Source: an uncultured Candidatus Saccharibacteria bacterium
GTDB taxonomy: Bacteria > Patescibacteriota > Doudnabacteria > UBA920
Reading direction: 5' to 3'
DNA: 64,000 nt
Assembly (NCBI GenBank): GCA_964650255.1
Contig: CAZYQT010000004.1
Span: 6,501-70,500, forward strand
Below are positions 8,685-62,927 of this stretch, piece by piece (within the stretch, counting starts at the first letter, position 1; every line of letters begins with the position of its first letter). The position numbers and the translations under genes are program-made. The notes beneath the pieces are model-generated. The model was not told where the DNA came from, did no database searches, and saw nothing but the letters and a program-made list of their open reading frames with translations.

Positions 8685-9443
8685 CTAGGTAAGCACTTTT
8701 ACCCCGGTTTTAGTAACCGCGATTGTATGTTCAAAATGCGCAGCTAACCCGCCATCGTGGGTGCGGACAGTCCAGCCATCGGTATCAAAAAATACCCTGG
8801 GTTTTAATTGGCAAACCATTGGCTCAATGGCCAATACCATGTTTTCAACTAACTCAATCCCCTTACCAGGCTTGCCGTACCCTGGCACAGACGGGTCTTC
8901 ATGCACAGCATAACCAACGCCATGCCCAACAAGATCGCGAACTGTAGAAAAATCTGCATCTTCCACAGTGCTTTGAATGGCAAACCCAATATCACCAATG
9001 TGATTTCCTGGCTTAACAACCTTCAAAGCATTTTCTAATGCTTGCTCCGTAACTTTAATAAGCCGTTCAGCTAAATGCGAAACTTTACCCACTGGCACAG
9101 TTATTGCTGTGTCCGTATACAACCTTTTATATTCCATGCCTATGTCGAGGCCAAGGATGTCCCCTTCTTCTAAAATATCCTGTTTTGATGGCACGCCGTG
9201 GACCACTGCGTCGTTAATCGAAGTGCACAAACCAGCAGGGAATGGATTTCTGCGATCGCCATAACCAATAAAGCTAGGGCGGCCGCCGGCTTTGATCATT
9301 TCCTTTTCTGCGAACTCGTTAATTTCCCAAGTGGAAATACCGGGTTTGGCCTTGGCGGCCGCCCGGTGCAGAATATCACGAAGGATCTTACCACCTTCGT
9401 TTATTAGTTTTATCTCATCGGGAGTTTTAGTATATCGTTTCAT
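8685..9443 (-). CDS. map: methionine aminopeptidase type I
   Basis: 252 aa with pita-bread fold motifs (HGVGYAVHEDP, LAIEPM). Confidence 0.9.
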   Translation of the reverse strand: MKRYTKTPDEIKLINEGGKILRDILHRAAAKAKPGISTWEINEFAEKEMIKAGGRPSFIGYGDRRNPFPAGLCTSINDAVVHGVPSKQDILEEGDILGLDIGMEYKRLYTDTAITVPVGKVSHLAERLIKVTEQALENALKVVKPGNHIGDIGFAIQSTVEDADFSTVRDLVGHGVGYAVHEDPSVPGYGKPGKGIELVENMVLAIEPMVCQLKPRVFFDTDGWTVRTHDGGLAAHFEHTIAVTKTGVKVLT

Positions 9444-9449
9444 AACTCG

Positions 9450-10073
9450 CTAACTTTGTCTGGACAAATATTCATCAATGGCTTTTTGAATACGCTTGCG
9501 CACTTCTGTGCGCGTACCTAAACCATCAATATATTTAAAATCGTATTTTGATTTAAAAAACTCAACCACTTCAGCGATATTTTTTCGGTAATACTTTGCC
9601 CGATTGCGAAGTGCTGTAATGCTATCATCAGCGCGTCTATTGAATTTAGTGTTGTAATAGCCTTTGCGCGCTTGAATTCTTTTGATAACTTCAGCCGCTG
9701 GAATTCGCAAATATATTACTAACGGATCTTTGCGTTGGGTTTGTTTTAAATACTTAGCTACAAGTTTTGCTTCGCCAACCATTTTTGGGTGGCCATCAAA
9801 TAAAATTGATTTCGATTGTGGCAACCCCAGCACTACATCACGATTTATTTTTCGAACAATGTTAGTAGGAGTTAATTTCCCTTGGTCATTATTCTTTTCC
9901 ATGACTAACTCAGCAGCTCGATCCTTTTCACGCAGCAAAGTTAGTGCTCGCCCCATGTCGTGATCATACATTTTATACTTCTTGGCAAAATAAGCTCCTT
10001 GAGTGGCCTTTCCCGCACCAGGATCTCCCAAAAGAATCATATTCAGATGCAATTTTTTGCCAGTATTTTTCAT
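9450..10073 (-). CDS. adenylate-kinase-family paralog (divergent NMP kinase)
   Basis: P-loop GDPGAGKATQG resembles the Adk motif GxPGxGKGTQ. DGHPK and RADDS resemble the Adk DGFPRT and RxDD motifs. Divergent compared with the upstream canonical adk. Confidence 0.55.
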   Translation of the reverse strand: MKNTGKKLHLNMILLGDPGAGKATQGAYFAKKYKMYDHDMGRALTLLREKDRAAELVMEKNNDQGKLTPTNIVRKINRDVVLGLPQSKSILFDGHPKMVGEAKLVAKYLKQTQRKDPLVIYLRIPAAEVIKRIQARKGYYNTKFNRRADDSITALRNRAKYYRKNIAEVVEFFKSKYDFKYIDGLGTRTEVRKRIQKAIDEYLSRQS

Positions 10074-10075
10074 GA

Positions 10076-10663
10076 TTAGACGTCCAGCGCCGCATTTATG
10101 CGATCAGTAATTTCTTGAATTGTGCCAACGCCATCTATAGTATGTAGATCACCAATACCTTCTAAGAACTTTAGCACTGGCTTTGTTTCTTTATCATAAG
10201 TATCCAGCCGAAAGTTGATTTTTTCTGGAGTGTCATCTGTTCGGAACTCATGATGAGCGCGCTCAAGCAAACGCTTCACCGATTCCTCGCGAGGAACATC
10301 AATGTGAATAGCAGCAAACTGTTTGTAACCATTCTGGCCCAGATAATTGATTAAATGCAGGCCCTGCGGCACAGTGCGCGGCACACCATCAAACAACAAC
10401 CGTTTGTGCTTAATTACTTCAGGAAGTTCGGTATTTAAAACGCGGAATAGTTCTTCATCTTCAAGTAGTTTGCCATTATCAATTAAATCTTTAACTTTAC
10501 GGCCAAATGGTGTGCCTTTCTTGGCTTCCTCGCGCAAGATAGCACCCATTTCCCAATAAAAATAGCCCAGACGCTCAGCCAGAACTTTTCCTTGAGTTCC
10601 TTTTCCTGAACCTTGCGGCCCGATCATGAATATAGCGTCGTATTTTGGTATGTCCATTGCCAT
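10076..10663 (-). CDS. adk: adenylate kinase
   Basis: GPQGSGKGTQ P-loop, FDGVPRT and RTDDTPEKI lid motifs. Start is probably the internal MAMDIP rather than the ORF-track start at 10693. Confidence 0.85.
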   Translation of the reverse strand: MAMDIPKYDAIFMIGPQGSGKGTQGKVLAERLGYFYWEMGAILREEAKKGTPFGRKVKDLIDNGKLLEDEELFRVLNTELPEVIKHKRLLFDGVPRTVPQGLHLINYLGQNGYKQFAAIHIDVPREESVKRLLERAHHEFRTDDTPEKINFRLDTYDKETKPVLKFLEGIGDLHTIDGVGTIQEITDRINAALDV

Positions 10664-10768
10664 AATTATAAAGTTTTTACAGCCTTTCTGCAAATTAAGT
10701 GAAACAGTGCGCTGAGTAACTAATTATGGTATAATATAAAAAATTTCTAACGAAACTAAAACAAAAAC

Positions 10769-25297: not shown

Positions 25298-25372
25298 GGC
25301 GCCATCGTCTAGTGGTTAGGACACATGGTTCTCATCCATGTAACCGGAGTTCGATTCTCCGTGGCGCTACCA
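25298..25372 (+). tRNA. tRNA-Glu (anticodon CUC), CCA encoded
   Basis: Cloverleaf built by hand: acceptor GGCGCCA/TGGCGCT (G1-U72), D-arm GTCT/GGAC, anticodon stem CATGG/CCATG with loop TTCTCAT, T-arm CGGAG-TTCGATT-CTCCG, discriminator A, CCA. Extended -10 (tgGTAGAAT) at 25265-25272. Confidence 0.85.
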
Positions 25373-25416: not shown

Positions 25417-25608
25417 TTAGTTGGCTATCTGAATTTGACGAGCCTTTTCAATTATCTTTCTTTGATCTTTATTGGATTTCTTAATTACAACCTCAATAAT
25501 TCGCTTCTTTTTCGTTGAAGATAAGTCATGAGAAAAGACCGAGAACTTACTTTGCTTCAGTTCCTTTTTGGGTTTGATATCAAAAATGTAGCGAATTATT
25601 CTATTCAT
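25417..25608 (-). CDS. small highly basic protein (63 aa), translationally coupled (TAATG) to the upstream zeta-like kinase
   Basis: MNRIIRYIFDIKPKKELKQSKFSVFSHDLSSTKKKRIIEVVIKKSNKDQRKIIEKARQ. Its start codon overlaps the kinase stop. Ends at the shared terminator. Partly overlaps the tRNA 3' region on the opposite strand, so could be spurious. Confidence 0.35.
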   Translation of the reverse strand: MNRIIRYIFDIKPKKELKQSKFSVFSHDLSSTKKKRIIEVVIKKSNKDQRKIIEKARQIQIAN

Positions 25609-26324
25609 TACTTTAGAAGTTCATTTAAATCATCTTCATTATACTGTTCTCGGATGTGGTTGTCAATTTCATCAATATTTAGCTCGGTTTTGCCTATGTC
25701 TCCATTAGCATCTTTGATCACTAAGTTAAGGGTGATTTGCTCTCTAAATTCTTCCTTAATAGCAGAAACGGTTTGCTTAGAAGCAAAATAGGCAGAAATA
25801 AATACAGGTTTAGTAATATTCCTTCCTTCAACTAACTCACGAGCTTTGGTAAACTCCCATGACACACGTGGATCTTGATAAATAAAATAGATTTCAGCAA
25901 TACCTCTTGCCTCTATCACTTTCTTAATATTCTTTCTAGATATACCTTGATTGGCCATGGTTCCATCAAGTACAAAATTCTGTTGATTTTTTAATACCGC
26001 ATGGAAAATTTCATCAACTGCAATACTTACTGCATTTTGAAATAGCCACGCATTTTTACCCTCATAAAATGAAATTTCTTTTCTAATCTCATCTGCGTCA
26101 ATTCTAATAATCCTGCCATTAAACTCTTCAATCAAATTAATAGAAAATTCGGTCTTTCCCGCTCCAGGAGAACCGGCCATAAAAACCGAGGCTGGTTTTA
26201 AGTCAGCCGGGAAATCCTTGGAATCAGCATATTTAGCAATAAGATAATTCTTTTTTGCTCTGATTTCCTTGCTGGCAGCGGAGCTAATTTCTTCATCTGT
26301 CATTTGAGTTTTCTTAATTAGCAA
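25608..26324 (-). CDS. zeta-toxin-family P-loop kinase-like protein
   Basis: Walker A GSPGAGKT around residue 50. IIRIDADEIRKE resembles the zeta IIIDGDSFR catalytic Asp region. VLDGTMAN resembles the zeta LIIEGTLR. Third gene of the mod-res operon. Confidence 0.55.
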   Translation of the reverse strand: MLIKKTQMTDEEISSAASKEIRAKKNYLIAKYADSKDFPADLKPASVFMAGSPGAGKTEFSINLIEEFNGRIIRIDADEIRKEISFYEGKNAWLFQNAVSIAVDEIFHAVLKNQQNFVLDGTMANQGISRKNIKKVIEARGIAEIYFIYQDPRVSWEFTKARELVEGRNITKPVFISAYFASKQTVSAIKEEFREQITLNLVIKDANGDIGKTELNIDEIDNHIREQYNEDDLNELLK

Positions 26325-26395
26325 GATTCAATAATTACACTTTATGACAAATTATGCAAGTGCCTCATTCCAAAACAATAGTTAAATATATAGAA

Positions 26396-29080
26396 TTAGC
26401 GAAGAATTTTTTCATTAAAGGTTGATTCAAAATCATCCCGCAATTCCATATTCCCTTCATTGTAGAAGGGTAAACCAATCAAGCGAAAATCTTCATTTTC
26501 AATTTTTATATCTACACTATATCGGTTTTCTATTTCTAGAAGAAATTTTTCTTTCCAACCTTCCTTGGAATTATTAAACGTATCTTCAGAGTCTAAAAAC
26601 TGGTCTCCTTTGGGTTCAATAAAAATTTGATAAAAATTTTCTTTTTGCGATTTTATCTCTCTTAAAAAGAGAACGAAGTCTGGCGAGAAAGCCTGTCCAT
26701 CAGAAAAATTATAAATCTTAAAAAATTTTTCATTTCGAAATAGGATTATATCTTTAAACTTATTTTTTAACAAACTTATAGAGCTTTCAATAAAACGCAA
26801 TAGAGATTCCTCTTCACTAGTTCCCCAGATTTCATTTTGAGCAAACCAATCATGGGAAGAAAAGTCAAAATCTCGCATTTCTAAAGCTCTTGCACTTTCA
26901 CCGTCCAGGTTTAAGACTTTGTCATTTTCAAATACCTCTCGGATTAAATGTGCCTTAAATTCAGATGTCCCCGAGTATTCTTTTTTCTCCTTGCTTGCGT
27001 TTTCTAAGACCTTTCCAATAACAAACCCTGCAATGCTTAGCTTTTCGCTTTGTGATAACTGGTCCAGCTGTTCAGGGATGCCTTTTACCTTTACCTTGAC
27101 CCCTCCGAGATACTGCTCGTTCAATATAAAATCCTTGACTGATTCTAAATTCCCAAAGATTTTCTTTAGTTCATCAAATCTACCGGTAGTGATTTTTGCC
27201 AAAGCTGTTCGTAAAATATGGGCCTCAAAATCAGTAATTTTAAATTCTCTTATCTCAGTTTTGACTTTAATCCCTTTTCCCTCACCAGTCACAAATAGAT
27301 CCTTTTCTATTGCTTCTCTGGTTGGTAATTGAAAAATGTTCATTTCAGAATGATGGTCGTATCCTGCGTTAGCATCGGCAAGTGTGAAGACGTCGTCTCC
27401 TAGATTTTCTTTTCTAGAATTCAAAAAAATGTAGCCATTCTTCCACAACTCTGTTTCCTTAATCTCGCTTTTAACTTTAATTTCCTTCTCCACGGTTCGG
27501 GAAGATATGATTCCTTCCTTAATTAGTACACTTTCCAATTCTTGTATATAACGCGGATTAGTTACGCTATGATAGTAAAGCTGTTCCAAAATACGTAATT
27601 CATTCTGCGCGTCAGTATCAAACTTTCTTGTATAGGGATCAGTAAATTCGCCAACCGTGAATGGGTAATAGCGCGCACCACGGCCAATCAGCTGAGCCTC
27701 CTGTACTGTAGTTTTACCCGGTTTATTATTGGCAGCATCCCGACTATTATAAAGCCTTACAATATCAAAAAGATTTAAAACGTCCCAGCCTTCATTTAAT
27801 TTTTCAGTCGCAAAAATAGCACGAACTTCATTACTGGATTCTTCTAAGGAGTTAAGTAATATCTGCTTTTGCTCTAAGTCTTTATCATCATCCACCGTTA
27901 AACAGTGTTCAGGTGCAAAGTCATGTTTAATTTCTTCCACTAAATCCTTTAGTGTTATTTTATGCTGATCGAAAAATAGAAAGGCTTTTTGCAAAGTTTC
28001 ATCTTGTATATTTGATTGTTGCTCTAATAATTTTTTATTTAACCCTTCAATGAAGGAATGGAATACTGTTTTGAACTCGCTCGAAACAACTATCTGAGGA
28101 TTGTCATTTGTTCGTTCATCTCTCTGTTTTGGCGAAGTTACTCTATTCGCTTTAAACATAATGACCGGCTTAAGCGCAATCTTATACTTCTCAGCTATTT
28201 TCCGACGATATTGAGAAATAATAACAGCTGAAAGCACGCGTTCCATCATTGGAGCATTAATTTGCAAGGTTCGTACATCTTTTGAAAATCCATCTAAACG
28301 GTACTCTTTAAGATCATAACGATAGATAGCTTTATCCTGGTATTTCTCTAAAATTTCTGGGTATTCTTGCTCTAGCCTAGCGGTTGCTGTGAATTCTAAA
28401 AGTACATTTTCATTTGCACTATTAGCATTCAAAATGCGCATAACCGTATTTTCCCAGTTACTTCGATCTTCTTCTTCAGTTTTGCTTAGTCGGCTATTAG
28501 TCTCAGCTGACAAATTATGCGCTTCATCTGCCATTAAAACAATTTTCTTGTCAGCAAAATCTTCATACGTCAGTACATTTTCGCGTGCTAAAGTAAATCG
28601 AGAATGCAGAAGCGCGGTGGTTGAAAAAATAATATTAATGTCATCATCATTCACCGCTTCGAAGTTTTCTACTTCTTTTATCTTTATTTCCTTAGTCCCT
28701 AAAATAATTTTATCGGCAAATAAATACTTTTGAGAATTAGAATCGGTGAAATTAGTCTTGGTTTTTTGGATGATATTTCCAAGTCTAGTAAAAAAAATAA
28801 AATTACGGAACCCTTGTTCATATAAATACAAAATATTAGCGGCCATTATTAATGTTTTACCTGAACCAGTAGCCATATTAAACATCAAATGAATAGGTTT
28901 TTGTTTTTGATGATAATCCTCGTAATAATAATAGAACCTACCCAATGCTTCTTTTTGATATTCACGCAATGAAAATGCTGGATTAAGATTGTTCAAAATA
29001 TCAATCCTTTCCATTGTCTTGTCCTTAAAAACATCCGCTCCCGCAAAATCTTTGAGAACGTTAAACTTTTCGTACAGCAT
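26396..29080 (-). CDS. res: type III restriction endonuclease Res subunit (SF2 helicase, DEAH)
   Basis: 894 aa. Motif I GSGKT, motif II MADEAH, helicase C-terminal motifs. Immediately downstream of mod. Confidence 0.85.
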   Translation of the reverse strand: MLYEKFNVLKDFAGADVFKDKTMERIDILNNLNPAFSLREYQKEALGRFYYYYEDYHQKQKPIHLMFNMATGSGKTLIMAANILYLYEQGFRNFIFFTRLGNIIQKTKTNFTDSNSQKYLFADKIILGTKEIKIKEVENFEAVNDDDINIIFSTTALLHSRFTLARENVLTYEDFADKKIVLMADEAHNLSAETNSRLSKTEEEDRSNWENTVMRILNANSANENVLLEFTATARLEQEYPEILEKYQDKAIYRYDLKEYRLDGFSKDVRTLQINAPMMERVLSAVIISQYRRKIAEKYKIALKPVIMFKANRVTSPKQRDERTNDNPQIVVSSEFKTVFHSFIEGLNKKLLEQQSNIQDETLQKAFLFFDQHKITLKDLVEEIKHDFAPEHCLTVDDDKDLEQKQILLNSLEESSNEVRAIFATEKLNEGWDVLNLFDIVRLYNSRDAANNKPGKTTVQEAQLIGRGARYYPFTVGEFTDPYTRKFDTDAQNELRILEQLYYHSVTNPRYIQELESVLIKEGIISSRTVEKEIKVKSEIKETELWKNGYIFLNSRKENLGDDVFTLADANAGYDHHSEMNIFQLPTREAIEKDLFVTGEGKGIKVKTEIREFKITDFEAHILRTALAKITTGRFDELKKIFGNLESVKDFILNEQYLGGVKVKVKGIPEQLDQLSQSEKLSIAGFVIGKVLENASKEKKEYSGTSEFKAHLIREVFENDKVLNLDGESARALEMRDFDFSSHDWFAQNEIWGTSEEESLLRFIESSISLLKNKFKDIILFRNEKFFKIYNFSDGQAFSPDFVLFLREIKSQKENFYQIFIEPKGDQFLDSEDTFNNSKEGWKEKFLLEIENRYSVDIKIENEDFRLIGLPFYNEGNMELRDDFESTFNEKILR

Positions 29081-29082
29081 AT

Positions 29083-30831
29083 TTATTTTCTACTATAAAA
29101 ATCCTGATTAAGCGCTTTATCATCTTTGCTTACTCTATATTCTTTATCATCAATTTCGCTTAGATTGACGTAAAGCTGGTTTTTATCCAAACACTCCATC
29201 AGAAACTTCTTTTTATTTTCCAAACTAAGTTGGATAAAATCCTTAATATTCGCATCAATTGTTTTTGGTTTTATTTTAAAACTTAAAAAGGCACTTTCTT
29301 TCATTGAATGCCAAAATTCTAAAAGTTCTTTATCATTTTTAGCTTTCTGTATTTTTTCTACCCACTCATCATTCCATTTTGCAAGTTCCATATAGATAAA
29401 ATCACCGCCACCATTCCATTGAACTAAGCTAGAAATTCCTTCTTGCTCTCCTTGAACCACAGAGTTCAGTCTATTTTTTAAAATTTCTATTTGCTCATCA
29501 ATTTGTTCGAGTGTTATATATTGCCTGCCCATTTTGTGCGACACTGCTGCAGTCGTACCGCTGCCAGAAAAAAAATCTAGCACAATATCACCCTCATCAG
29601 TCGCAGAATTAATAATTCTTCTTAGTAAACCCTCGGGTTTCTGTGTCCTGAAATCCAAAAACTCATTGGAACCACTAATCAGTGGTTTTGTTATGTCATG
29701 GTCCCAGACATCTCTAACATAAACTTCTGAAAAATATCTATTAAATAGCTTATCCTTGTACCTATCAGGGACTGCTTGGTTATTTTTTATACTATCTGAA
29801 ATTACTTTACGGTCTTTTTCAGAAAGTTGAGATAGATCTGGAGCGGTAACCTGAGTGTCTATAAAGGGTTTTTCATACTTTACTACTTCTTTTTCTGGAT
29901 TAAATTTATAATTTTCAGTTTTACTATAAATAAAAATATTGTCATGCTTCTTAGGCCACGCCCCTTTACCCACACCTTGAATACGGTATCCCCAAATAAC
30001 TTCATTAACAAAATTGTCTCTACCTAATACTTCATCACATAACACTTTAAAATAATGTGCCTCGTTGTAATCTAAATGAATATAGATAAGTCCTGTTGAA
30101 GACAACAACTCTCTAGCAATTTTTAAACGATCTTTTATAAATGTAAGCCAAGAAGAATGGTTAAATCTATCATTATATTTAAAGGAATCCTTTTCCGTAT
30201 TAAATGGTGGATCAATGTATATTAATTGAATTTTCCCACCGAATTCTTTTTTAAGCGAAGCAAGTGCGAGAAGATTATTACCTTTAATAATTAAATTGTC
30301 AGTGATTATACCTTTTTCATTGCGGTTAAAGCCAACTAATTTATTCTCCCCGTTTTTATCTATGCGTTTGAAATTAGTAAAGACCTTTGGATCAAACAAA
30401 CTATTAATATCATCAGAAGCTAATGTTTCATTATAAAAAATTTCATCGCGTTTTTGGTCTTCCTTAGTCATTCCGCCTTCTAGAACACAATCCTTGTATG
30501 GCCAAGCTAAAACTACTTCATTATTTTCGCTTAAATAATTGTTACCGCTAATAAGGCCGATTTTATTTTTAAAAGCAGTATAGGAATCTGGTAAAAATTG
30601 CTTATTCGACACAAAGCTAATAAACTTCTCTTTATCAAAAATTAGTGTTTTTTCTACTTCAAAAAAGAAATTCTGCTTTATGGCTTTATCGGAAAGTAAA
30701 AGTTTAATCAGGTCTGCATCGTTCTTGCGTGCCAATTCTTGTATTTGGTTTTTCAATAACACTCCGTCCTGAGAAACAAGACGCTCATCGCTTTTCAGTA
30801 AACCTGTAACTTGCTCAAAAATATTATTCAT
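29083..30831 (-). CDS. mod: type III R-M Mod subunit, N6-adenine/N4-cytosine DNA methyltransferase
   Basis: 582 aa. Catalytic IYIDPPFNT (DPPF/Y) motif and AdoMet motif FFSGSGTTAAV. 2-nt gap to res. Confidence 0.85.
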   Translation of the reverse strand: MNNIFEQVTGLLKSDERLVSQDGVLLKNQIQELARKNDADLIKLLLSDKAIKQNFFFEVEKTLIFDKEKFISFVSNKQFLPDSYTAFKNKIGLISGNNYLSENNEVVLAWPYKDCVLEGGMTKEDQKRDEIFYNETLASDDINSLFDPKVFTNFKRIDKNGENKLVGFNRNEKGIITDNLIIKGNNLLALASLKKEFGGKIQLIYIDPPFNTEKDSFKYNDRFNHSSWLTFIKDRLKIARELLSSTGLIYIHLDYNEAHYFKVLCDEVLGRDNFVNEVIWGYRIQGVGKGAWPKKHDNIFIYSKTENYKFNPEKEVVKYEKPFIDTQVTAPDLSQLSEKDRKVISDSIKNNQAVPDRYKDKLFNRYFSEVYVRDVWDHDITKPLISGSNEFLDFRTQKPEGLLRRIINSATDEGDIVLDFFSGSGTTAAVSHKMGRQYITLEQIDEQIEILKNRLNSVVQGEQEGISSLVQWNGGGDFIYMELAKWNDEWVEKIQKAKNDKELLEFWHSMKESAFLSFKIKPKTIDANIKDFIQLSLENKKKFLMECLDKNQLYVNLSEIDDKEYRVSKDDKALNQDFYSRK

Positions 30832-30936
30832 AATTTTACTCTAAATATACTTAATAATAACATTTCTTCATGTGTTGGTAAATCCTTCATAAACAAGCAA
30901 AAGCACCTATCCTATCAGTGATGCTATAATCAACCT

Positions 30937-31356
30937 ATGAACATCTACCTCGACATCGATGGAGTGCTCCTGACAGATTCCCTATCTGACCGTGGCAATC
31001 CTACCCCGCACTCCCTGGAGCTCCTCAATACGATTACTGACCACCACACAGTCTATTGGCTCACTACCCACTGCCATGGCGGGGAAAATCGCGCTCCCGA
31101 ACTTCTCTACCCAAAATTCCCTCCTGAAGCCAAAGCTTACATAGACAAAATCTTGCCTACAGATTGGGGTACTTGGAAAACTGATGCCATCGATTTTTCC
31201 GAAGACTTCCTCTGGCTCGACGATGACGTCTACGGAACAGAATACACAGCCCTAGCCAAACACAACTGTTCAGAAAAACTCATAAAAATTAATCTACAAG
31301 AGAATCCGGAGCAGTTGAAAGATATTATTCAAAAATTAACAGATAAAAATATATGA
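30937..31356 (+). CDS. HAD-superfamily phosphatase-like protein, compositionally atypical (GC-rich, C-ending codons)
   Basis: Motif I LDIDGVLL, motif II WLTT, motif IV LWLDDD. The first roughly 300 nt are visibly richer in G+C than the flanking genes. Confidence 0.45.
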   Translation: MNIYLDIDGVLLTDSLSDRGNPTPHSLELLNTITDHHTVYWLTTHCHGGENRAPELLYPKFPPEAKAYIDKILPTDWGTWKTDAIDFSEDFLWLDDDVYGTEYTALAKHNCSEKLIKINLQENPEQLKDIIQKLTDKNI

Positions 31357-31544
31357 AATGGTTAAAAGAGAATTGGTTTAAAATAGCTATTTTGCTCTCA
31401 GTGCTACTTATATTCTTTAGTTGGTTATATGTGGCAAAAATAAAACCATCGAATATTCGTAAATTTTGTTTTAATATAGCTAAGGAAAATCCCTACGGTT
31501 ACAACTATAAAGAATGTATTATTAGTTACGGGTTAACCCAATAA
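31353..31544 (+). CDS. small membrane protein (1 TM), hypothetical
   Basis: 63 aa. ATGA overlap with the HAD-like gene. Hydrophobic segment IAILLSVLLIFFSWLYV. Confidence 0.3.
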   Translation: MKWLKENWFKIAILLSVLLIFFSWLYVAKIKPSNIRKFCFNIAKENPYGYNYKECIISYGLTQ

Positions 31545-31762
31545 TATCATGTCCAATAAATAGAACACCACCATAGGTTTGAGCCTTGGAATGATCCTGC
31601 TTGGATTGCTTATTGCTGCTATAGCTGTAATTGTAGCTGTGGCGATAAAAAGCTTCGTGAATGGTTTAAAAAACCATACTGTCTCGAAAAAAATATTAAT
31701 GAGAAAAGTGTTGCTCAAATAGTCAAAGATTATCTATTAACACAACAATCCTGGTTATAGCA

Positions 31763-32305
31763 TTATTTCTCAATACCCAGGGCTATGTATAAACTGGAAT
31801 ACACTAAGCCTTCATAGAATTGGCATGACATGTACTCTGGGTCTTCTTTAGTTGCTTTTTGATACCAATCCCACGATGCCATTGGATCGGAAACTATTGG
31901 CATCGTCGTAACTTTATAGCCAAGCTGAATAATTTTCTCAATGATTGGTTTTAAAAGGTTGAGATTATCTCCAATTATTTCAATTACTATATTCTTCTTA
32001 TCTGCGATTGCCGTGCTTACCACATACTCACCTGCAAAGGATAAATAGGCTGACATTTTTGGATCTTCAGCATCGAATAGCTTATTCATCTCGAGAACTA
32101 TATCGCCACCATCAAAATGTACGTAACCTGTCGGGAACTCTTGACGACGAGCAGTAGTTTTTCCAGCGGCTGGACCACCGGACACAATTACAAACTGCGG
32201 ATGGTCTTCGGTCCTACCCCGTTCACAAAACTGTTCTACTAGTTCAAGAATTTTCAGCGTAGCATCGGTCTCAAATTGTACTATTTTTGGCTGTGATTCT
32301 GACAT
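31763..32305 (-). CDS. second zeta-toxin-like P-loop kinase (short form)
   Basis: Walker A SGGPAAGKTT. VHFDGGDIVLE matches the Asp-containing catalytic segment. IEIIGDNL matches the zeta-like third motif. 180 aa. Confidence 0.45.
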   Translation of the reverse strand: MSESQPKIVQFETDATLKILELVEQFCERGRTEDHPQFVIVSGGPAAGKTTARRQEFPTGYVHFDGGDIVLEMNKLFDAEDPKMSAYLSFAGEYVVSTAIADKKNIVIEIIGDNLNLLKPIIEKIIQLGYKVTTMPIVSDPMASWDWYQKATKEDPEYMSCQFYEGLVYSSLYIALGIEK

Positions 32306-56219: not shown

Positions 56220-57437
56220 TTATGCAGGTTCGACTGATCCGCGCTTCCACTTATGTAAAACCGCAAGACCAATAATCATAAAGACGGTCATTGATGCCAT
56301 AGCGATTCGATATGAAGTCGGATGACTACCTAGAGTCAATAGAATACCACCCCAAGTTAATGGACCCACAAAAGTGGCAAAGCGTTCGGCAATAGTGTAA
56401 AAAGAAAAACCATAACCTAATTGTTCCTTCGGCAGAACCGTACTCAAATAAGAACGAGTCACGGTCCATACCGAACCAATCAACAAACCACTAATTGAGC
56501 CCATGGCTACAAACATTACAAAAGTGGATGATAAAGCTAGTAATGGAATCACAAGAATCCACATAAGTAAAATTATTTTCAAAGTCTTCAACGCACCGAT
56601 CTTATCTCCTAGCCAACCAGCGATAATACCACCAACGGCTGAACCAAGTAAAATAACCATTAATAAAATTGATTTAGTGGTGTCTGCGGTATGGAAGACT
56701 CGCTCCATATATATCGAGTAGTTATTGCTAATAGTTAGCAAAGCGTCATTAAAAAAGAAGAACGCGACCAACATTGGAGTTGCAGCAGAGACTGCAAAAA
56801 AAGCAAACATCTTTTTAAGATAGGATTTAGTTTCTGCTTCTATATTTTCTTTCGACTCTTGTGTATTGGCTTCTCTCGGAGATTCTTTGTAAAAAATCAT
56901 CATTGGTAAAGCGAGCACAAAGAAGACTCCCACTGCTGGCAATAGCGGAGCCAAATGTGAATGCGCTAATGGCAAACTCATCGCAATGCCGAGAATCAAA
57001 CCCATGGTGTTAGCAAATTGACCAATACCTGAAGCGCGAGTACGATGAGCTTCATCAGCAATTTCTGTAAGCAGCGGATTATAAAAAACAAATGACAACT
57101 GGTAGAAATACTGTCCGACCAAAAATAGTAAAGCAATAATCCAAACATTTATTCCATGACCAGCGAGCACAGCAACCAAACCGTAACCAATAAATGTTCC
57201 AATAGTTGCAATGTTGACCATGCGCTTTCGACCGCCATGCTTATCAGTATGAGCAGCTAAAGGCGGTGCGGTGAGTAGCAAGATAATTGTAACAATGGCA
57301 AAAATAGCGTTATACCAAAAATCAGAAAAGCCAGCATCGATAACTATCCACTGCGCAAAATAAAGAACAAAGTTAATGTAAATAAACGAATTGGCAAAGT
57401 CGTACAGAGCCCAAAAAAACAATTGTTTTTTGTTCAT
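56220..57437 (-). CDS. MFS-type transporter
   Basis: 405 aa, about 12 TM helices with MFS-like periodicity. Confidence 0.65.
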   Translation of the reverse strand: MNKKQLFFWALYDFANSFIYINFVLYFAQWIVIDAGFSDFWYNAIFAIVTIILLLTAPPLAAHTDKHGGRKRMVNIATIGTFIGYGLVAVLAGHGINVWIIALLFLVGQYFYQLSFVFYNPLLTEIADEAHRTRASGIGQFANTMGLILGIAMSLPLAHSHLAPLLPAVGVFFVLALPMMIFYKESPREANTQESKENIEAETKSYLKKMFAFFAVSAATPMLVAFFFFNDALLTISNNYSIYMERVFHTADTTKSILLMVILLGSAVGGIIAGWLGDKIGALKTLKIILLMWILVIPLLALSSTFVMFVAMGSISGLLIGSVWTVTRSYLSTVLPKEQLGYGFSFYTIAERFATFVGPLTWGGILLTLGSHPTSYRIAMASMTVFMIIGLAVLHKWKRGSVEPA

Positions 57438-57880
57438 GTGGTTAATTTAATAAACTCACTTCTTAATTTCATCCAAATTTTGCCCATTTTATTTTGACCC
57501 GAGCCGTCTTTGCCAGTACCCCAATAGCTGTCGGTCTCGCTCACTTTTAGCAATTCCCTATCTCTGGTCTCAGTTAAGACTTTGAGGATGTCTGGATGCT
57601 GATTTATTTTAGCACGAAACAATTCTTCCATGACTGCCTCTTTATCAAAATTTTCAATTAACAAATTCAAATCTACCTTATGTCTCTGTGCAATTGCCCA
57701 AGCTTCTAGCGGACTAGTTGCGTTCTTGATACTATCCCTTTCCGCCCCTGGTTTTATTCGCGCGCACTGGTAAGCATGTTCAACTGTTGCAAACTTTTCG
57801 CCCCAAATCGAAATTTGATGTGCAGAAAATGGCGACAAATAGTTAAACCGGTTTTCTAGAAAATTGATGGGTTTGTCCAT
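57434..57880 (-). CDS. NADAR-domain protein (YbiA-like N-glycosidase, DUF1768)
   Basis: FLENRFNYLSPFSAHQISIWGEKFATVEHAYQCAR... matches the NADAR signature (F.SNF....F....F.S.EH.YQ). Confidence 0.65.
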   Translation of the reverse strand: MDKPINFLENRFNYLSPFSAHQISIWGEKFATVEHAYQCARIKPGAERDSIKNATSPLEAWAIAQRHKVDLNLLIENFDKEAVMEELFRAKINQHPDILKVLTETRDRELLKVSETDSYWGTGKDGSGQNKMGKIWMKLRSEFIKLTT

Positions 57881-57922
57881 ACCTCCATAATATCAAAAAC
57901 TCGCACTAAGGGCGATTCACTA

Positions 57923-58180
57923 TTATTTATCAATTTCAAACACCTTTCGCTTAGATGTTTTCCCAGACACTAATTTAATCAAACTCTTTGGCACTTTAAA
58001 GTAGCTAGCCAATGCCCTTACAATAGCATCGTTGGCTTGCCCGTGGATTGGCAGTTCTTTTACCGCAACTATATATTCAACAAGATCTGGCGTATCTTGC
58101 TCAAAACCCAAAGCAGGCTGACTTACCCTCTGAACCTTCTCTTCTCTGGAATTTGGTTTAGACTTTACGACAATCTTCAT
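57923..58180 (-). CDS. DUF167 (YggU-family) protein
   Basis: 85 aa. VKPNSREEKV...IAVKELPIHGQANDAIVRALASYFKVPKS matches UPF0235/DUF167. Confidence 0.55.
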   Translation of the reverse strand: MKIVVKSKPNSREEKVQRVSQPALGFEQDTPDLVEYIVAVKELPIHGQANDAIVRALASYFKVPKSLIKLVSGKTSKRKVFEIDK

Positions 58181-58557
58181 TGCAACTTCCTGCGAGCCAA
58201 ACTTTTGGATATCTGCTCATGATTTAAACCAAAATGATGGCCAATCTCATGCCAAACAGTATCAGCTACCTGTTTCCTGATAATTTCAGGGTCTGATGAT
58301 ATAGCTAAAAGAGGTTTTTTAAAAATAGTAATTTTGTCAGGTAAAGCCATGAAGTAATAATTACCTCGAGCGCTTTGTGGCACACCTTCATACAGCCCCA
58401 ACAACGTGCGATGTTTATCGAGGTTCATTAATTTGCGCTGACGTGGAGTGGGCTCATCTTCAATAACAAAAGCCAGATTACTCAGCTTGTCGCGAAAAAT
58501 CTCCGGTATTGCACCTATGCCATCTAAAACTAATTGTTCGAATTCTGAATCATCCAT
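58177..58557 (-). CDS. zincin-like metallopeptidase family protein (HExxH)
   Basis: 126 aa. WHEIGHHFGL HExxH motif. Resembles the DUF1025/Zincin_1 small peptidase family. 4-nt overlap with the downstream gene. Confidence 0.55.
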   Translation of the reverse strand: MDDSEFEQLVLDGIGAIPEIFRDKLSNLAFVIEDEPTPRQRKLMNLDKHRTLLGLYEGVPQSARGNYYFMALPDKITIFKKPLLAISSDPEIIRKQVADTVWHEIGHHFGLNHEQISKSLARRKLQ

Positions 58558-58630
58558 AGATATTATATGAGTACTATAACAAAAACTCGCCCTTCAGGCG
58601 ATTTTAAGAGAAAAGACGAAAGTATCAACC

Positions 58631-59170
58631 TTAAGAAAAAACTATTTGCCTTGTCTGCCGCTGAGAAAAATGTATGACTAATTCAAACGCACAAACCAAA
58701 ATGGCTAAATAAGCCAAATCGCCTATCAACATGTTGCGAAAAAATGGTAACCCGAGCTGATATGCAAACAAAAGTCCAGCAAAATTCTTTTCGTACCAAG
58801 GCGAGAACATCCATACTGCTGCATTGGTCACTAGAAAAAAGAATACTGATGAACCCATCACCGATAGTCCCCCGACCAATACTGAACCGGATTTTGTTGT
58901 CATCCACGCCAGAAAACCGATTGCCAAAAATGACCCATAGACTGTAAGCATAATTGGCCAAGAATAAAATCCAATCATTAAATCAGATATAAACATAACT
59001 GATACGGGCAATATAACCGCCCAGCGTTTTCCTAGATACAACCCTCCCACAAAAGCAATGGCAGTAACAGGGGTTAAATTTGGTAAATGAGGCATTGATC
59101 TAATCAACACACCAAATACAACCAAAGCCACCGCTGTAAGAAATATTGTTTTATTATTTTTAAAATGCAT
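58631..59170 (-). CDS. polytopic membrane protein, putative substrate-capture component associated with DUF4430 (cobalamin uptake context)
   Basis: About 180 aa with 5-6 TM. Start probably at MHFKNNK rather than the ORF-track start at 59215. Immediately downstream of the DUF4430 gene. Confidence 0.4.
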   Translation of the reverse strand: MHFKNNKTIFLTAVALVVFGVLIRSMPHLPNLTPVTAIAFVGGLYLGKRWAVILPVSVMFISDLMIGFYSWPIMLTVYGSFLAIGFLAWMTTKSGSVLVGGLSVMGSSVFFFLVTNAAVWMFSPWYEKNFAGLLFAYQLGLPFFRNMLIGDLAYLAILVCAFELVIHFSQRQTRQIVFS

Positions 59171-59174
59171 AAAT

Positions 59175-59618
59175 TTATTGCGTTGATTTGCCAAAATACC
59201 AATCCACAGAATCACCGTTTTTTAGTTTATATTGATCTGCGCCAACCTGTGGCATAACACCATTTACTTTATATTGCCAATATTCATCAGTCGTTCCATT
59301 GCTTAAATTACCCATCCCAACGACCAAAGTACCCATACCGGAATATTCTTTAGTAACCAGCTTTATTTCAGGATTAGATCGGTTGAGAGAGTTCAGCAAA
59401 TCTAACAAACTTGAATTTTCAGCAATAGTGACCGGTTTGTTCTGAAATAGACCCTCAACGGTCAAATTAACATTCAGAGTTTGGGGGGTACGCACTTCCT
59501 GTAAATTTTGACTGTCTGACGAAGCGTCTTTTTTTATAATTTGTGGTGCTCCAAAAATTAAAGCCGCTACTATGACAGCAATTCCTAGAAATGGTAAAAG
59601 TGTTTTTTTGTTCATCAT
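59175..59618 (-). CDS. DUF4430-domain secreted protein (transcobalamin-like B12-binding fold)
   Basis: Signal/anchor (TLLPFLGIAVIVAALIFGA). C-terminal GDSVDWYFG characteristic of DUF4430. Confidence 0.5.
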   Translation of the reverse strand: MMNKKTLLPFLGIAVIVAALIFGAPQIIKKDASSDSQNLQEVRTPQTLNVNLTVEGLFQNKPVTIAENSSLLDLLNSLNRSNPEIKLVTKEYSGMGTLVVGMGNLSNGTTDEYWQYKVNGVMPQVGADQYKLKNGDSVDWYFGKSTQ

Positions 59619-59622
59619 TGTT

Positions 59623-60180
59623 TTAATTAATTCTATACGAAGGAGAGACTTCTGCAGCGTTTTCTAACTCAGCGGAATAACGAGCTAAAACATAGAGCAG
59701 GCTAGACAACCGATTAAGATATGCCATTGTGGATTCGGATAATGTTCGAAAGTTCCTTGAATTAATTACTGCTCGCTCAGCCCTGCGAGATAAAGCCCTT
59801 GCATAGTCGCACAGTGCTGATGTAAAGTTTGCCCCAGGTATTACAAAGCCATTAGGTTTTACAATAATCTTCTCCATGTAATCAATGGTGTCTTCTAACT
59901 CATCGACATGGGCTTTTGTCAGGGTTTTGTCTGCACCAGCTAATTCTGCTTGAACTAAAAATAAACACTCTTGAACCTTAAGTAACTCAGGAAGCACTTC
60001 TCCAGATATTCCAGGAGACATTCCGTTACAAATTGCTTTACTTGCTCTGCACAAACCTAACAAAGAATTAAGTTCATCAAGAGTTCCGAGAGCTTCGTAA
60101 ATTGGGCTATTCTTTGGAAACCGATCTCTAGTTCCAAACAAACCCGATGTTCCAGTATCACCTTTGCGAGTGTATAACAT
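59623..60180 (-). CDS. pduO: ATP:cob(I)alamin adenosyltransferase, PduO-type
   Basis: MLYTRKGDTGTSGLFGTRDRFPKNSPIYEALGTLDELNSLLG matches the PduO/MMAB N-terminal signature. Confidence 0.8.
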   Translation of the reverse strand: MLYTRKGDTGTSGLFGTRDRFPKNSPIYEALGTLDELNSLLGLCRASKAICNGMSPGISGEVLPELLKVQECLFLVQAELAGADKTLTKAHVDELEDTIDYMEKIIVKPNGFVIPGANFTSALCDYARALSRRAERAVINSRNFRTLSESTMAYLNRLSSLLYVLARYSAELENAAEVSPSYRIN

Positions 60181-60182
60181 AA

Positions 60183-62528
60183 TTATGTGGTTACTTTAGT
60201 CTTATCAACAGTAATAACTTCCATAGATGGGATGATTTCTATTTCACAAGCACCACCTGCACAAGCCAGCTCCCGTTTTTGTTCCGTTTCGTCGGTCCGT
60301 TCATAAATTAACAGTTTAGAATAATCGATATCCGGGAATGCTGCGCTTAATTCCTCAAATCGCTTTTGGTCAATTGCCTCATACGGGGCTAATTGATATA
60401 CATGATCGAACCTTGGTAAAAAAGACAACCCGCCAATAATATCCCAATTTTTTTGCAGCCAATCCACTACCCCAACCCACTCATCTTCACCAATTGAAAT
60501 GGTTGCTGACGGATTATGCTCAGTGTAATTAAGTTTCACTGTTTTCCAATATTCTAATTGCTCCAAGGCAGTGAAGTCGTCTTTGAATTTTGCTTTGCCT
60601 GGTGATTGAACTGGAAATTCTAAAACATAGGTGGTGGCATTATCTGGATTTTGTCCAACTTCGGGATAATAAGGCACCCCTTGATCACGCAGCATCTTAA
60701 ACAACGAGTCTGTAGCTGAGATGCGAACGCGGCGAATATAATATTTTGAGTGTCGAGGATGAATTCCTGAAGAACAATTAAAGGTTTGCGATACTGTACC
60801 CGAAGGTTTAACAGCAGTAACTGCCAGTGCTGGGTTAATACCAAATCGCTTAGCGTACTCCTCATTTGTTGTTATAGCTATTTCCCTCATATCTGAAAGG
60901 GTTTTTGGGTCACGAGCTGCGCTAGAGTCCCATTGACCAGTAACCGACACGCCGAGCAAGGACTCTGCGCGGCAATGTTCAGCCCATTCTTTTGAAATAT
61001 AATTAAACTTAGTAAGCGAGGCTTGATAGGTTCCTAAAATCGCAGCCAAACGGGTTTTGCGAATAAGGCTGTCATGAGTATCATCTGCGCGAGCAATAAC
61101 TTCGGTAAGATTGCAAAACTGTTTAGACTGCAAAATGATTTCTCCACAAGGATTTGTGCCAATGGGTCCGGTAACCACTCCATCGCTATTCAAAAATCCT
61201 TTGGTTTGGAAATACTTTGCTCTACGCTTTGGTAATGTGGTGTGGAGAAAGCCGCGATTAAAAATCCCGCGTTCCCCAGACCCACTTTTCATCAGTGCCA
61301 ACCACTCTTCCATAAGTTCAGTATTAGTAGGACGATTTTCGTAGACCGCGGAATTATTAGCAACCATGCGATGAGGATCTGACAAAAAGAACTGCCCTTT
61401 TTTGGCATCTCGTAATTCGATGTCATCAAAGTCAGACAAACTAATCATAGCGGTACGACGCACGCCACCGGCAACAACACACTCGCCTATTTTACAAATA
61501 ATATCATGGGCATCTATTGGACGCAGTCTCCTACCTTGACGGCGTAAAATCTTCTCCCTCGAGAATTGCAACAATGATCGTAACGGCTCTGGACCAGATG
61601 CTTTACCACCCATCACCTTCAAGCGAACTCCTGCTGGTCGAATTTGAGAAAAATCAAACTCAATATCTTTACCGTCATACCAGGTCTTTAATCCTGCAGT
61701 TAAGGCATCGCACCAACCCTCCTTTGAGTCACCGACTACGAAGGTTGTAATATGGCCATTAGTTTGTTTTTTTATTTGTGGTAGCTGCTCAATATTCTCA
61801 CTTTCAACTGCAAAACCCACACCGCAACCCTGCATTGATAAATACATAATTTCGGCAAAGTCTTCTATTTTCGTTGGAGCTATGAAAGTACAGTTATAGG
61901 CACAAGCGTTACATCGGCGGGCTGGCTCGCCAGAAAACTGCATCAGTCGCATAGAAGGCATAACCTCTTGACTTAAAATCGCTTGGCGCAGGTCTACATA
62001 TTCAGATTCACTTAACTTGTTAGCTAAATTTTCTTTCATAAAGGAGATGTACCGATCAACTGTTTCTATCCAGGTCTCCCGTCGATTTTCAGATTCAATC
62101 CACCGCGCATATGAACGCAAATAGATAAATTCGCCTAATGGGTTGTTAACAAAATATTTTTTACTTTCCGCGTTAAGTAATCGTACATGCTCGGGTACGT
62201 CTCCGTGCTCTAATCGTTCCTGCTCTCTTTCTGCTCTATAGAGAATATAAGCCTTGGCGGTAGCAGTAAATCCTTGGTGCATTAATTCCTTTTCCACTTC
62301 GTCCTGCACCCCCTCAACACTCGCTGTAAATTCAACATCCACTGTCTTTTTCGCGATTAATTCCTTAGTAACAGCGACGGCAACTACCTGAGCTGATCTA
62401 TCATTAAATTCTCCTGCCGCCTTCATTGCTTTAGTGACTGCGGTGACAATTTTTGCTTGATCAAATGGAACTAGATTGCCATCACGTTTACGGATGTTGA
62501 TAAGTTGACCTTCATTTACTTGCTTCAT
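60183..62528 (-). CDS. nrdJ: ribonucleotide reductase large chain with N-terminal ATP-cone; inferred class II (adenosylcobalamin-dependent, NrdJ-type)
   Basis: 781 aa. ATP-cone (INIRKRDGNLVPFDQAKIVTAV). RNR catalytic core. C-terminal CAGGAC redox pair. No nrdB/nrdG adjacent, but pduO and a B12-binding protein are. Confidence 0.75.
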   Translation of the reverse strand: MKQVNEGQLINIRKRDGNLVPFDQAKIVTAVTKAMKAAGEFNDRSAQVVAVAVTKELIAKKTVDVEFTASVEGVQDEVEKELMHQGFTATAKAYILYRAEREQERLEHGDVPEHVRLLNAESKKYFVNNPLGEFIYLRSYARWIESENRRETWIETVDRYISFMKENLANKLSESEYVDLRQAILSQEVMPSMRLMQFSGEPARRCNACAYNCTFIAPTKIEDFAEIMYLSMQGCGVGFAVESENIEQLPQIKKQTNGHITTFVVGDSKEGWCDALTAGLKTWYDGKDIEFDFSQIRPAGVRLKVMGGKASGPEPLRSLLQFSREKILRRQGRRLRPIDAHDIICKIGECVVAGGVRRTAMISLSDFDDIELRDAKKGQFFLSDPHRMVANNSAVYENRPTNTELMEEWLALMKSGSGERGIFNRGFLHTTLPKRRAKYFQTKGFLNSDGVVTGPIGTNPCGEIILQSKQFCNLTEVIARADDTHDSLIRKTRLAAILGTYQASLTKFNYISKEWAEHCRAESLLGVSVTGQWDSSAARDPKTLSDMREIAITTNEEYAKRFGINPALAVTAVKPSGTVSQTFNCSSGIHPRHSKYYIRRVRISATDSLFKMLRDQGVPYYPEVGQNPDNATTYVLEFPVQSPGKAKFKDDFTALEQLEYWKTVKLNYTEHNPSATISIGEDEWVGVVDWLQKNWDIIGGLSFLPRFDHVYQLAPYEAIDQKRFEELSAAFPDIDYSKLLIYERTDETEQKRELACAGGACEIEIIPSMEVITVDKTKVTT

Positions 62529-62585
62529 AATCGTAAATATTATATATTGATAGTGGTCTATTCATTATAATATAGATGGTCATCT

Positions 62586-62927
62586 ATGAACAAGAAAAAA
62601 ACTGGGGATAAAACCCAAACCACTTACCCACGCCCTAAATGGGTGCCGCAAACCGTCTCCCAAGAGGAAGAGCTTTGCCCAGATTGCTTCAAAGTTGTTG
62701 GCGAAAGAAGTCGATATAAGCTAGTGTGTATGCTCGGAAAGACCAAAACCGGCATGACCGTTGGTGAATTGACTGAGAAAATGAATTTGCGACAGCCTAC
62801 TGTCACCCACCACCTGCAAACTTTGCAATCTGTGCAGGCCGTCCATAGCGAACAGCGCGGTCGGGAGCGAATCTACACCCTCAACCGCAAGGCGCACTGT
62901 TTTGAGGAATGCAACATCCCATATTAA
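62586..62927 (+). CDS. ArsR/SmtB-family metalloregulator
   Basis: Winged HTH (RYKLVCMLGKTKTGMTVGELTEKMNLRQPTVTHHLQTLQ). N-terminal CPDC and C-terminal Cys/His residues. Confidence 0.65.
   Translation: MNKKKTGDKTQTTYPRPKWVPQTVSQEEELCPDCFKVVGERSRYKLVCMLGKTKTGMTVGELTEKMNLRQPTVTHHLQTLQSVQAVHSEQRGRERIYTLNRKAHCFEECNIPY

Follow-up and report, generated by a model that had tools for sequence, protein, structure and literature searches.

A four-gene operon predicted to salvage corrinoids for deoxyribonucleotide synthesis in a Patescibacteria bacterium

The stretch of DNA analyzed here, hereafter the window, covers 64,000 nucleotides of contig CAZYQT010000004.1 (assembly GCA_964650255.1, positions 6,501 to 70,500) from an uncultured bacterium of the Patescibacteria, or Candidate Phyla Radiation (CPR). 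It contains a four-gene operon that is probably devoted to corrinoid salvage for deoxyribonucleotide synthesis, a reading to which we assign a probability of roughly 0.78. All four genes lie on the minus strand. From the upstream end they are nrdJ (60183-62528, 781 amino acids (aa)), predicted to encode an ATP-cone-bearing class II ribonucleotide reductase (RNR) of the ribonucleoside-triphosphate reductase (RTPR)/NrdJm lineage; pduO (59623-60180, 185 aa), for a PduO-type ATP:cob(I)alamin adenosyltransferase; a gene for a CbrS-like DUF4430 protein with a membrane anchor and an extracytoplasmic domain (59175-59618, 147 aa); and a gene for a six-helix membrane protein of the DUF6580 family (58631-59170, 179 aa). 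The operon is best described as the CPR version of a known Lactobacillus cluster, in which the new part is a transporter component from an uncharacterized family.

The original prediction, made from the letters of the DNA alone, had drawn four consecutive minus-strand genes with gaps of 5 nt or less, and both this layout and its coordinates hold. The longest open reading frame (ORF) of the membrane protein runs from 58631 to 59215, and alignment with 24 homologues, together with the sequence itself, places the real start at the ATG at 59170 (MHFKNNK...). With this start the intergenic gaps are 2, 4, and 4 nt, suggesting that the four genes are probably translationally coupled. An intrinsic-terminator-like hairpin at 58587-58601 on the same strand (TCGCCTGAAGGGCGA, then the T run GTTTTTGTTA) lies 30 nt past the DUF6580 stop codon and marks the operon end. 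The gene order is shared with about 20 related genomes reached via DUF6580, and the RNRs of genomes that keep it are 57-80% identical. Independent sampling based on the RNR found the four-gene order in two of three genomes and the RNR adjoining PduO in all three. Because the order recurs in both samples, the arrangement is no chance juxtaposition. The DUF4430 and membrane genes, whose absence from homologous loci had been named as a reason to doubt the module, are present there. Close homologues of all four proteins come, without exception, from Patescibacteria/CPR metagenome-assembled genomes.

The large chain had been presumed to be a class II NrdJ, and profile classification agrees. Its best NCBIfam model by far is TIGR02505, the adenosylcobalamin (AdoCbl)-dependent ribonucleoside-triphosphate reductase, at 314.3 bits, whereas NrdE_NrdA reaches 15.7 bits, which excludes the class I NrdA/NrdE assignment named as the refuting case. 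Pfam recognizes an ATP-cone (aa 10-102, approximately 62223-62501, 69 bits), RNR_Alpha, the barrel domain, and the RNR-II insertion domain; the latter, the dimer-mimicking PF21995, is marginal at 28.5 bits versus a cutoff of 27 (aa 259-320). The top match in the PDB is the RTPR of L. leichmannii (1L1L, E=7e-48), and class I and class III models and entries match through the ATP-cone only. BLASTP against a Lactobacillus RTPR aligns aa 112-764 end to end at 26% identity. In this alignment, C461 corresponds to the thiyl radical cysteine C408 of RTPR, C213 and C472 to the redox pair C119 and C419, N459 and E463 to N406 and E410, and C756 and C761 to the C-terminal CxxxxC redox pair C731 and C736. 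The window enzyme thus shares with 1L1L the catalytic cysteines, the Asn/Glu residues, the C-terminal redox pair, the insertion domain, and a triphosphate-type apical loop. It differs in a core about 70 residues shorter, in the added N-terminal ATP-cone, and in an apical phosphate loop that reads P-S-M-R rather than P-S-G-R. The enzyme with this P-S-M-R variant tested by Schell et al. was a triphosphate (NTP-type) reducer (PMC8365446). The loop and the adjoining pduO gene indirectly suggest that the window RNR may depend on AdoCbl and act on NTPs. By sequence, it is a class II enzyme of the RTPR/NrdJm type with an intact active site, and it would be expected to be active.

The large chain had also been described as having no nrdB or nrdG partner. 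Among the ORFs of at least 100 aa in the 64-kb window, we found no nrdB/nrdF, no nrdD/nrdG, and likewise no cob/cbi, btuFCD, or energy-coupling factor (ECF) module genes. A homologue search with the RNR scored at least 8000 candidates; the best 120 listed are 73-80% identical, exact match aside. NCBI names these homologues "ribonucleoside-triphosphate reductase", and the enzyme itself is therefore already annotated and not new. Its ATP-cone carries KRDG...F...KI motifs, which we take to be the usual ones. Known ATP-cones switch activity off via a changed oligomeric state, and the RTPR type of enzyme is described as monomeric, raising the question of how off-switching would work. A canonical-looking ATP-cone on an RTPR-type RNR is kept in thousands of the CPR homologues retrieved; we found no biochemical study of such an enzyme in the literature. 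In one related locus (L004, 2726-6247) the RNR ORF is 1173 aa, approximately 390 aa longer than its orthologues, with a partial tblastn match to the window RNR, and may contain an intein or other insertion.

The second gene had been called a PduO-type cob(I)alamin adenosyltransferase. Its product scores 141.5 bits with PF01923 (cutoff 24) and 129.6 bits with TIGR00636, above the equivalog cutoff of 108.45. Full-length alignments are obtained with L. reuteri PduO (3CI1) and human MMAB (2IDX). The window protein is a single Cob_adeno_trans domain and shows no notable difference from either.

The DUF4430 protein, taken in the original prediction to have a B12-binding fold, matches PF14478 at 57 bits versus a cutoff of 23.8. 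Its N-terminus is a hydrophobic segment lacking a lipobox cysteine, and a domain of some 100 residues comes next; all 36 aligned homologues have this layout. In a PDB search its profile recovers the beta-domains of intrinsic factor (E=8e-8), haptocorrin (1.4e-6), and transcobalamin (1.7e-4), and nothing else comparable. The likeness to these three carriers (2PMV, 4KKI, 5NO0) covers the whole beta-domain of approximately 100 residues, including the YWQ motif. A weak structural model points the same way: its top 19 Foldseek matches are confined to these three carriers and the DUF4430 structure 3U7Z from R. gnavus, and its TM-score to the isolated transcobalamin beta-domain is 0.68, at a mean predicted local distance difference test score (pLDDT) of 57. 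At the level of sequence, the profile comparison shows DUF4430 to be homologous to the cobalamin-binding beta-domain; that it binds cobalamin would follow from homology and gene context. Unlike the animal B12 carriers, the window protein has its DUF4430 domain alone on a membrane anchor, with no alpha-domain in the window.

The last gene had been described simply as a polytopic membrane protein. Its sole Pfam match is PF20221 (DUF6580, 140 bits). An AlphaFold2 model built from a 25-sequence alignment has six helices and a pLDDT of 90.3. Its best Foldseek match in the PDB is BtuM with cyanocobalamin (8C7P, E=8e-3, TM-score 0.67), followed by the ECF substrate-binding components (S-components) for thiamin (ThiT), riboflavin (RibU), folate (FolT), cobalamin (CbrT), and pantothenate. 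The 18 best matches are all S-components or BtuM, and scores collapse afterwards. In sequence, the only PDB entry found by the DUF6580 profile is the 182-residue CbrT (6FNP_A, E=1.5e-4, helices 1-3), with no match to BtuM at this level. Alignment by hhalign with fragments of CbrT relatives gives 89% probability and a common R...PN(L/V)xPVT motif. The CbrT relatives came from a search with a fragment query and were mostly truncated proteins, and the CbrT alignment is reliable over the first 100 or so columns only. Two alanines in the first transmembrane helix (TM1), A16 and A20, are nearly invariant in CbrT sequences, and their DUF6580 counterparts, positions 14 and 18, vary among V/I/L/G. AxxxA-type motifs in TM1 have a role in docking to EcfT.

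The modeling and profile results show that DUF6580 has the ECF S-component fold, with the two B12-specific S-components BtuM, by structure, and CbrT, by sequence, as its nearest relatives. It is a distant relative, not a member, of either family, because PF20221 is its only family match, the TM1 alanines are unconserved, and Cys80 of BtuM is missing. Invariant residues of DUF6580 include R24, H28, N31, D63, Y69, N116, W120, and Y126, among others, and lie in or near loops 1, 3, and 5, which would face outward according to the positive-inside rule and form the likely substrate site. A search of 1.84 billion representative proteins at E<=1e-10 returned 4,384 DUF6580 clusters at 50% identity. One of these proteins (P0303, 337 aa) is a fusion of DUF6580, a transmembrane anchor, and DUF4430, in which the anchor between the domains gives the right topology for DUF4430 outside the cell. 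Another (P0358, 1062 aa) joins DUF6580 to an alpha-toroid, a peptidoglycan-binding domain, and an Ig-like domain. A third (P0297, 372 aa) looks like read-through from an alpha-toroid tail into DUF6580 and is possibly a gene-calling artefact. The literature searched mentions neither DUF6580 nor a module of this kind from CPR bacteria.

A pattern scan of one genome per species yielded at least 580 DUF6580 loci, of which the best 80 were analyzed for all locus counts given here. Nearly all of the 80 are labeled Patescibacteria; the few other taxon labels are probably wrong. In at least 69 loci the gene immediately upstream of DUF6580, in the same orientation, encodes a DUF4430 or alpha-toroid protein; the number rises to approximately 76 if over-extended ORF calls are allowed for. 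Two of the four loci with no such partner have DUF6580 at or near a contig end. PduO is found in 18 loci, an adenosyltransferase of the CobA/BtuR type in 7, and nrdJ in 20. In those seven loci (L049, at 8944-9537, and L051, L031, L069, L022, L042, and L057), the CobA/BtuR-type gene takes the place of pduO beside the DUF4430-DUF6580 pair; the L049 enzyme scores 180 bits with PF02572. Judged by sequence, this is a non-orthologous replacement in some CPR lineages. Two unrelated adenosyltransferase families in the same position are classic evidence of a link to corrinoids. The complete genome CP174359.1 carries the operon. In the complete Campbellbacteria genome CP064977.1 (330772-345102), an orthologous RNR is adjoined by a convergent PduO gene, and there is no DUF4430 or DUF6580 gene within 6 kb of the RNR, indicating that the uptake genes can be unlinked or absent.

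In many CPR genomes a gene for a large alpha/alpha-toroid protein (about 570-970 aa, usually with an N-terminal DUF4430 domain) sits between the small DUF4430 gene and DUF6580; none is present in the window. By strict criteria such a protein, of 600-900 aa, is near DUF6580 in 37 of the 80 loci, with 40 toroid ORFs in all. Examples are L018 (7191-9032), L004 (7248-9443), L023 (7933-9993), L044 (7779-9989), and L058 (7167-9953), along with about 35 other loci. Two of these proteins pass the cutoff of the Pfam family Cobalamin_bind ("Eukaryotic cobalamin-binding protein"). We nevertheless rejected the label "transcobalamin alpha-domain" for these large neighbors, because the family profile matches squalene-hopene cyclases far more strongly (E=3e-32), and name them alpha/alpha-toroid proteins for the same reason. 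In related CPR loci the separate toroid protein, with a DUF4430 of its own, takes the place of the alpha-domain of the animal carriers. These large proteins may be bacterial relatives of the two-domain B12 carriers with the domain order reversed.

A precedent for the whole operon exists in lactobacilli. Rodionov is said to have predicted the Lactobacillales cluster and its ECF-CbrT B12 transporter in 2009. Santos et al. (2018, PMC5997447) place the cbrT gene of L. delbrueckii within an nrdJ-cbrS-cbrT-pduO cluster and demonstrate cobalamin and cobinamide transport by ECF-CbrT. Three of our Lactobacillus-type loci (L087-L089) encode, in order, an RTPR of 743 aa lacking an ATP-cone, a pair of extracytoplasmic DUF4430 proteins that includes one lipoprotein, a CbrT-type S-component, and PduO; from this composition, CbrS is DUF4430. 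The window operon shares with these clusters an RTPR-type NrdJ, an extracytoplasmic DUF4430 protein, a six-helix protein of approximately 180 aa with the S-component fold, and PduO. The differences are several. The window order is nrdJ-pduO-DUF4430-DUF6580 rather than nrdJ-cbrS-cbrT-pduO, and it includes a single DUF4430 gene where the lactobacilli have two; PF20221 is the family of the membrane protein, whereas CbrT belongs to PF12822/PF07155; the window RNR carries an ATP-cone, which the Lactobacillus RTPR lacks; and, unlike the Lactobacillales ECF-CbrT, no ECF module was identified for the window operon. With the RNRs only 26% identical, there has been no recent transfer between the Lactobacillus and CPR clusters. 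By analogy, we regard the window operon as the functional CPR counterpart of the Lactobacillus cluster. Within the lactobacilli, the cbrT ORF of L088 (6001-7095) is 135 aa compared with 182 aa for the crystallized protein, its longest PduO ORF is 166 aa compared with a stored call of 186 aa in the near-identical L089, and many CbrT relatives in the databases are similarly short or frameshifted, which suggests that the B12 cluster is decaying in some strains.

BtuM, the solitary cobalamin S-component found in proteobacteria, offers a second precedent. Its gene adjoins an adenosyltransferase gene, and metabolic trapping has been proposed (Rempel et al. 2018, PMC6072759). The family is defined by an invariant cobalt-ligating cysteine, Cys80, in loop 3 (PMC6072759; PDB 6FFV/8C7P). 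DUF6580 resembles BtuM in fold (TM-score 0.67), in its similar size, in its linkage to an adenosyltransferase, and in having no ECF module linked to the gene. However, BtuM works behind the outer-membrane protein BtuB without DUF4430, whereas DUF6580 is nearly always paired with DUF4430.

The operon shares a 57-nt control region (62529-62587, with no strand assigned) with a divergent gene for an ArsR/SmtB-family regulator (62586-62927, plus strand; NF033788, 59 bits, above cutoff). This spacer contains a perfect palindrome, ATAGA-N6-TCTAT, at 62572-62587 and an imperfect second site at 62546-62561 beside a conserved TATCAATATA. Across 12 loci both sites and the TATCAATATA block stay the same, although the non-coding bases around them do not. 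In the window as a whole the pattern is no more frequent than expected by chance, and its support is therefore conservation at this position rather than its count. Our preferred interpretation of the conserved sites is an ArsR-type operator with a -10 element. NrdR boxes were considered and rejected: compared with the NrdR consensus, TATCAATATA is core-like in a few loci and inconsistently so, and the distance between the two sites ranges from 26 to 34 nt. The regulator is 62-78% identical and divergent from nrdJ in at least 12 loci, and its C31, C34, H104, C105, and C109 (CxxC...HCxxxC) are invariant in 13 sequences. The divergent ArsR-like protein may control the operon. In relatives, though, its gene forms an operon with a following multicopper oxidase gene that is absent here, leaving the regulator's target uncertain. 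Scans at the Rfam gathering threshold of the window and seven related loci, including Lactobacillus L088, returned tRNAs only and no cobalamin riboswitch (RF00174).

If the operon works as we propose, the membrane-anchored DUF4430 protein would capture a corrinoid outside the cell and hand it to DUF6580, which would translocate it by the toppling movement of S-components. After reduction by some reductase, PduO, as assigned by homology, would adenosylate cob(I)alamin in the cytoplasm, and may pass AdoCbl straight to NrdJ. The cofactor would then serve the class II enzyme, with the ATP-cone providing on-off control by ATP and dATP.

Several observations weigh against this interpretation. The RNR score of 314.3 bits falls below the trusted equivalog cutoff of TIGR02505 (340.05), and we therefore file the enzyme as a divergent RTPR relative and not an equivalog. 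The single-sequence AlphaFold model of DUF4430 is of low confidence, as its pLDDT indicates, and is therefore used as supporting evidence only; cobalamin binding by this protein is a prediction from homology and gene context. The similarity of DUF6580 to CbrT is limited to TM1-3, and CbrT's Pfam families PF12822 and PF07155 do not match it. The invariant Cys80 ligand of BtuM has no counterpart, the sole cysteine of the window protein, C160, being unconserved. An adenosyltransferase is nearby in just 25 of the 80 DUF6580 loci. The 57-nt gap upstream of the operon holds no cobalamin riboswitch, and no cob(II)alamin reductase or thioredoxin was identified within the operon. The absence of ECF-module and corrinoid-synthesis genes holds for the 64 kb of the window and about 1.2 Mb of relatives' flanks. 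It is uncertain whether the B12 module deserves the label "self-contained" given to it in the original prediction, since the genome may encode an ECF module or a cob(II)alamin reductase at another site.

How DUF6580 would be energized is the closest question. We lean slightly toward DUF6580 working alone in the manner of BtuM, with uptake pulled by trapping through adenosylation and NrdJ binding. This solitary mode is favored because no ECF gene is linked to DUF6580 in the window or the 80 loci, because the TM1 alanine motif is missing, and because the closest structural match is BtuM, whose gene also has an adenosyltransferase neighbor. Alternatively, DUF6580 could be a conventional group II ECF S-component that docks on a shared EcfA-EcfA'-EcfT module encoded elsewhere and is driven by ATP like ECF-CbrT. 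Genes for group II S-components are normally unlinked to the module. The only PDB sequence relative, CbrT, is inactive without its ECF module (PMC5997447). However, the window contains no ABC ATPase pair or EcfT-like gene, and none lies beside DUF6580 in the 80 loci; a scan for ABC motifs in these loci (1.2 Mb) found 9 scattered ABC ATPase ORFs and no tandem pair, although at approximately 1.5 genome equivalents it has little power for unlinked modules. In addition, DUF6580 has variable hydrophobic residues where CbrT has A16 and A20, its closest structural match, BtuM, is independent of ECF, and the adenosyltransferase linkage mirrors BtuM-BtuR. We consider the shared-module arrangement unlikely, if still a serious contender.

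It is improbable that the ligand of DUF4430 and DUF6580 is something other than a corrinoid, or that the two play a structural part at the cell surface, with B12 entering otherwise and their proximity to nrdJ-pduO a lineage-specific accident. Such a view could draw on the 55 of 80 DUF6580 loci that have no adenosyltransferase or RNR nearby, and on the large partner proteins being closer to squalene-hopene cyclase repeats than to transcobalamin. It is countered by the significant homology of DUF4430 to cobalamin-binding beta-domains and by the two unrelated adenosyltransferase families that alternate beside the DUF4430-DUF6580 pair. Lactobacilli have the same set of DUF4430, S-component, PduO, and RTPR, with the S-component a proven B12 transporter, and translational coupling and gene order are kept across genomes whose RNRs are 57-80% identical. 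Least credible of all is a reductase that does not depend on AdoCbl, for example a class I-like alpha subunit with its partner elsewhere, in which case the operon would be no B12-use module: the RNR does score under the TIGR02505 trusted cutoff, an ATP-cone is unusual for the RTPR type, and partner subunits were searched for in 64 kb only, but the class I model scores 15.7 bits and the RTPR model 314, the top PDB match is RTPR with class I/III entries reached via the ATP-cone only, the protein has both the RNR-II insertion domain and a C-terminal CxxxxC of the RTPR type, and PduO immediately follows the RNR gene in every related locus sampled.

Beyond corrinoid salvage for deoxyribonucleotide synthesis as such, a more specific joint proposal can be made, which we hold tentatively and at somewhat less than even odds. 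DUF6580 would be a third lineage of corrinoid S-components beside CbrT and BtuM, independent of ECF modules, in which the invariant extracytoplasmic residues H28, R24, and D63 would replace the cysteine (Cys80) of BtuM. Its cargo would come from transcobalamin-like tethered donors, namely a membrane-tethered DUF4430 beta-domain with or without an alpha-toroid protein, and would supply a monomeric NrdJ regulated by an ATP-cone, with an ArsR-type regulator acting on operators of the form ATAGA-N6-TCTAT. If true, these parts together would amount to a minimal system that obtains B12 from a host or community, and DNA synthesis in many CPR bacteria would depend on that supply.

The rest of the window is ordinary housekeeping, including DnaE, DnaB, several aminoacyl-tRNA synthetases, and ribosomal proteins L10 and L7/L12. 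Past the terminator, on the same strand, 57434-58557 encodes a zincin-like metallopeptidase (PF06262), a DUF167/YggU protein, and a NADAR-domain protein, followed by a gene for a major facilitator superfamily transporter. Of these downstream genes only DUF167 was found in related loci (L002 and L053), away from the operon. A low-GC island at 25608-32305 (33-35% compared with about 41% elsewhere) adjoins a tRNA at 25298-25369. Within it, two zeta-toxin-like genes (25608-26324 and 31763-32305) bracket a type III restriction-modification pair (res, 26396-29080; mod, 29083-30831), and the whole is probably a mobile defense island. Two tandem genes of the adenylate kinase family, for proteins of 207 and 205 aa, lie at 9450-10693.

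CPR bacteria are abundant and mostly uncultured, with tiny genomes and poorly defined dependencies on hosts. The operon indicates that the only visible deoxyribonucleotide route in these bacteria uses a cofactor they probably cannot make. This amounts to a testable nutritional link to corrinoid producers and gives a hint for cultivation, which is to supply cobalamin or cobinamide. It also provides specific functional hypotheses for two protein families, DUF6580 as a corrinoid S-component and bacterial DUF4430 as a capture protein. Among the questions raised are whether DUF6580 can transport unaided by an ECF module, and whether B12 is bound by the bacterial proteins in which an alpha-toroid and DUF4430 occur together, which are possible relatives of the animal B12 carriers.

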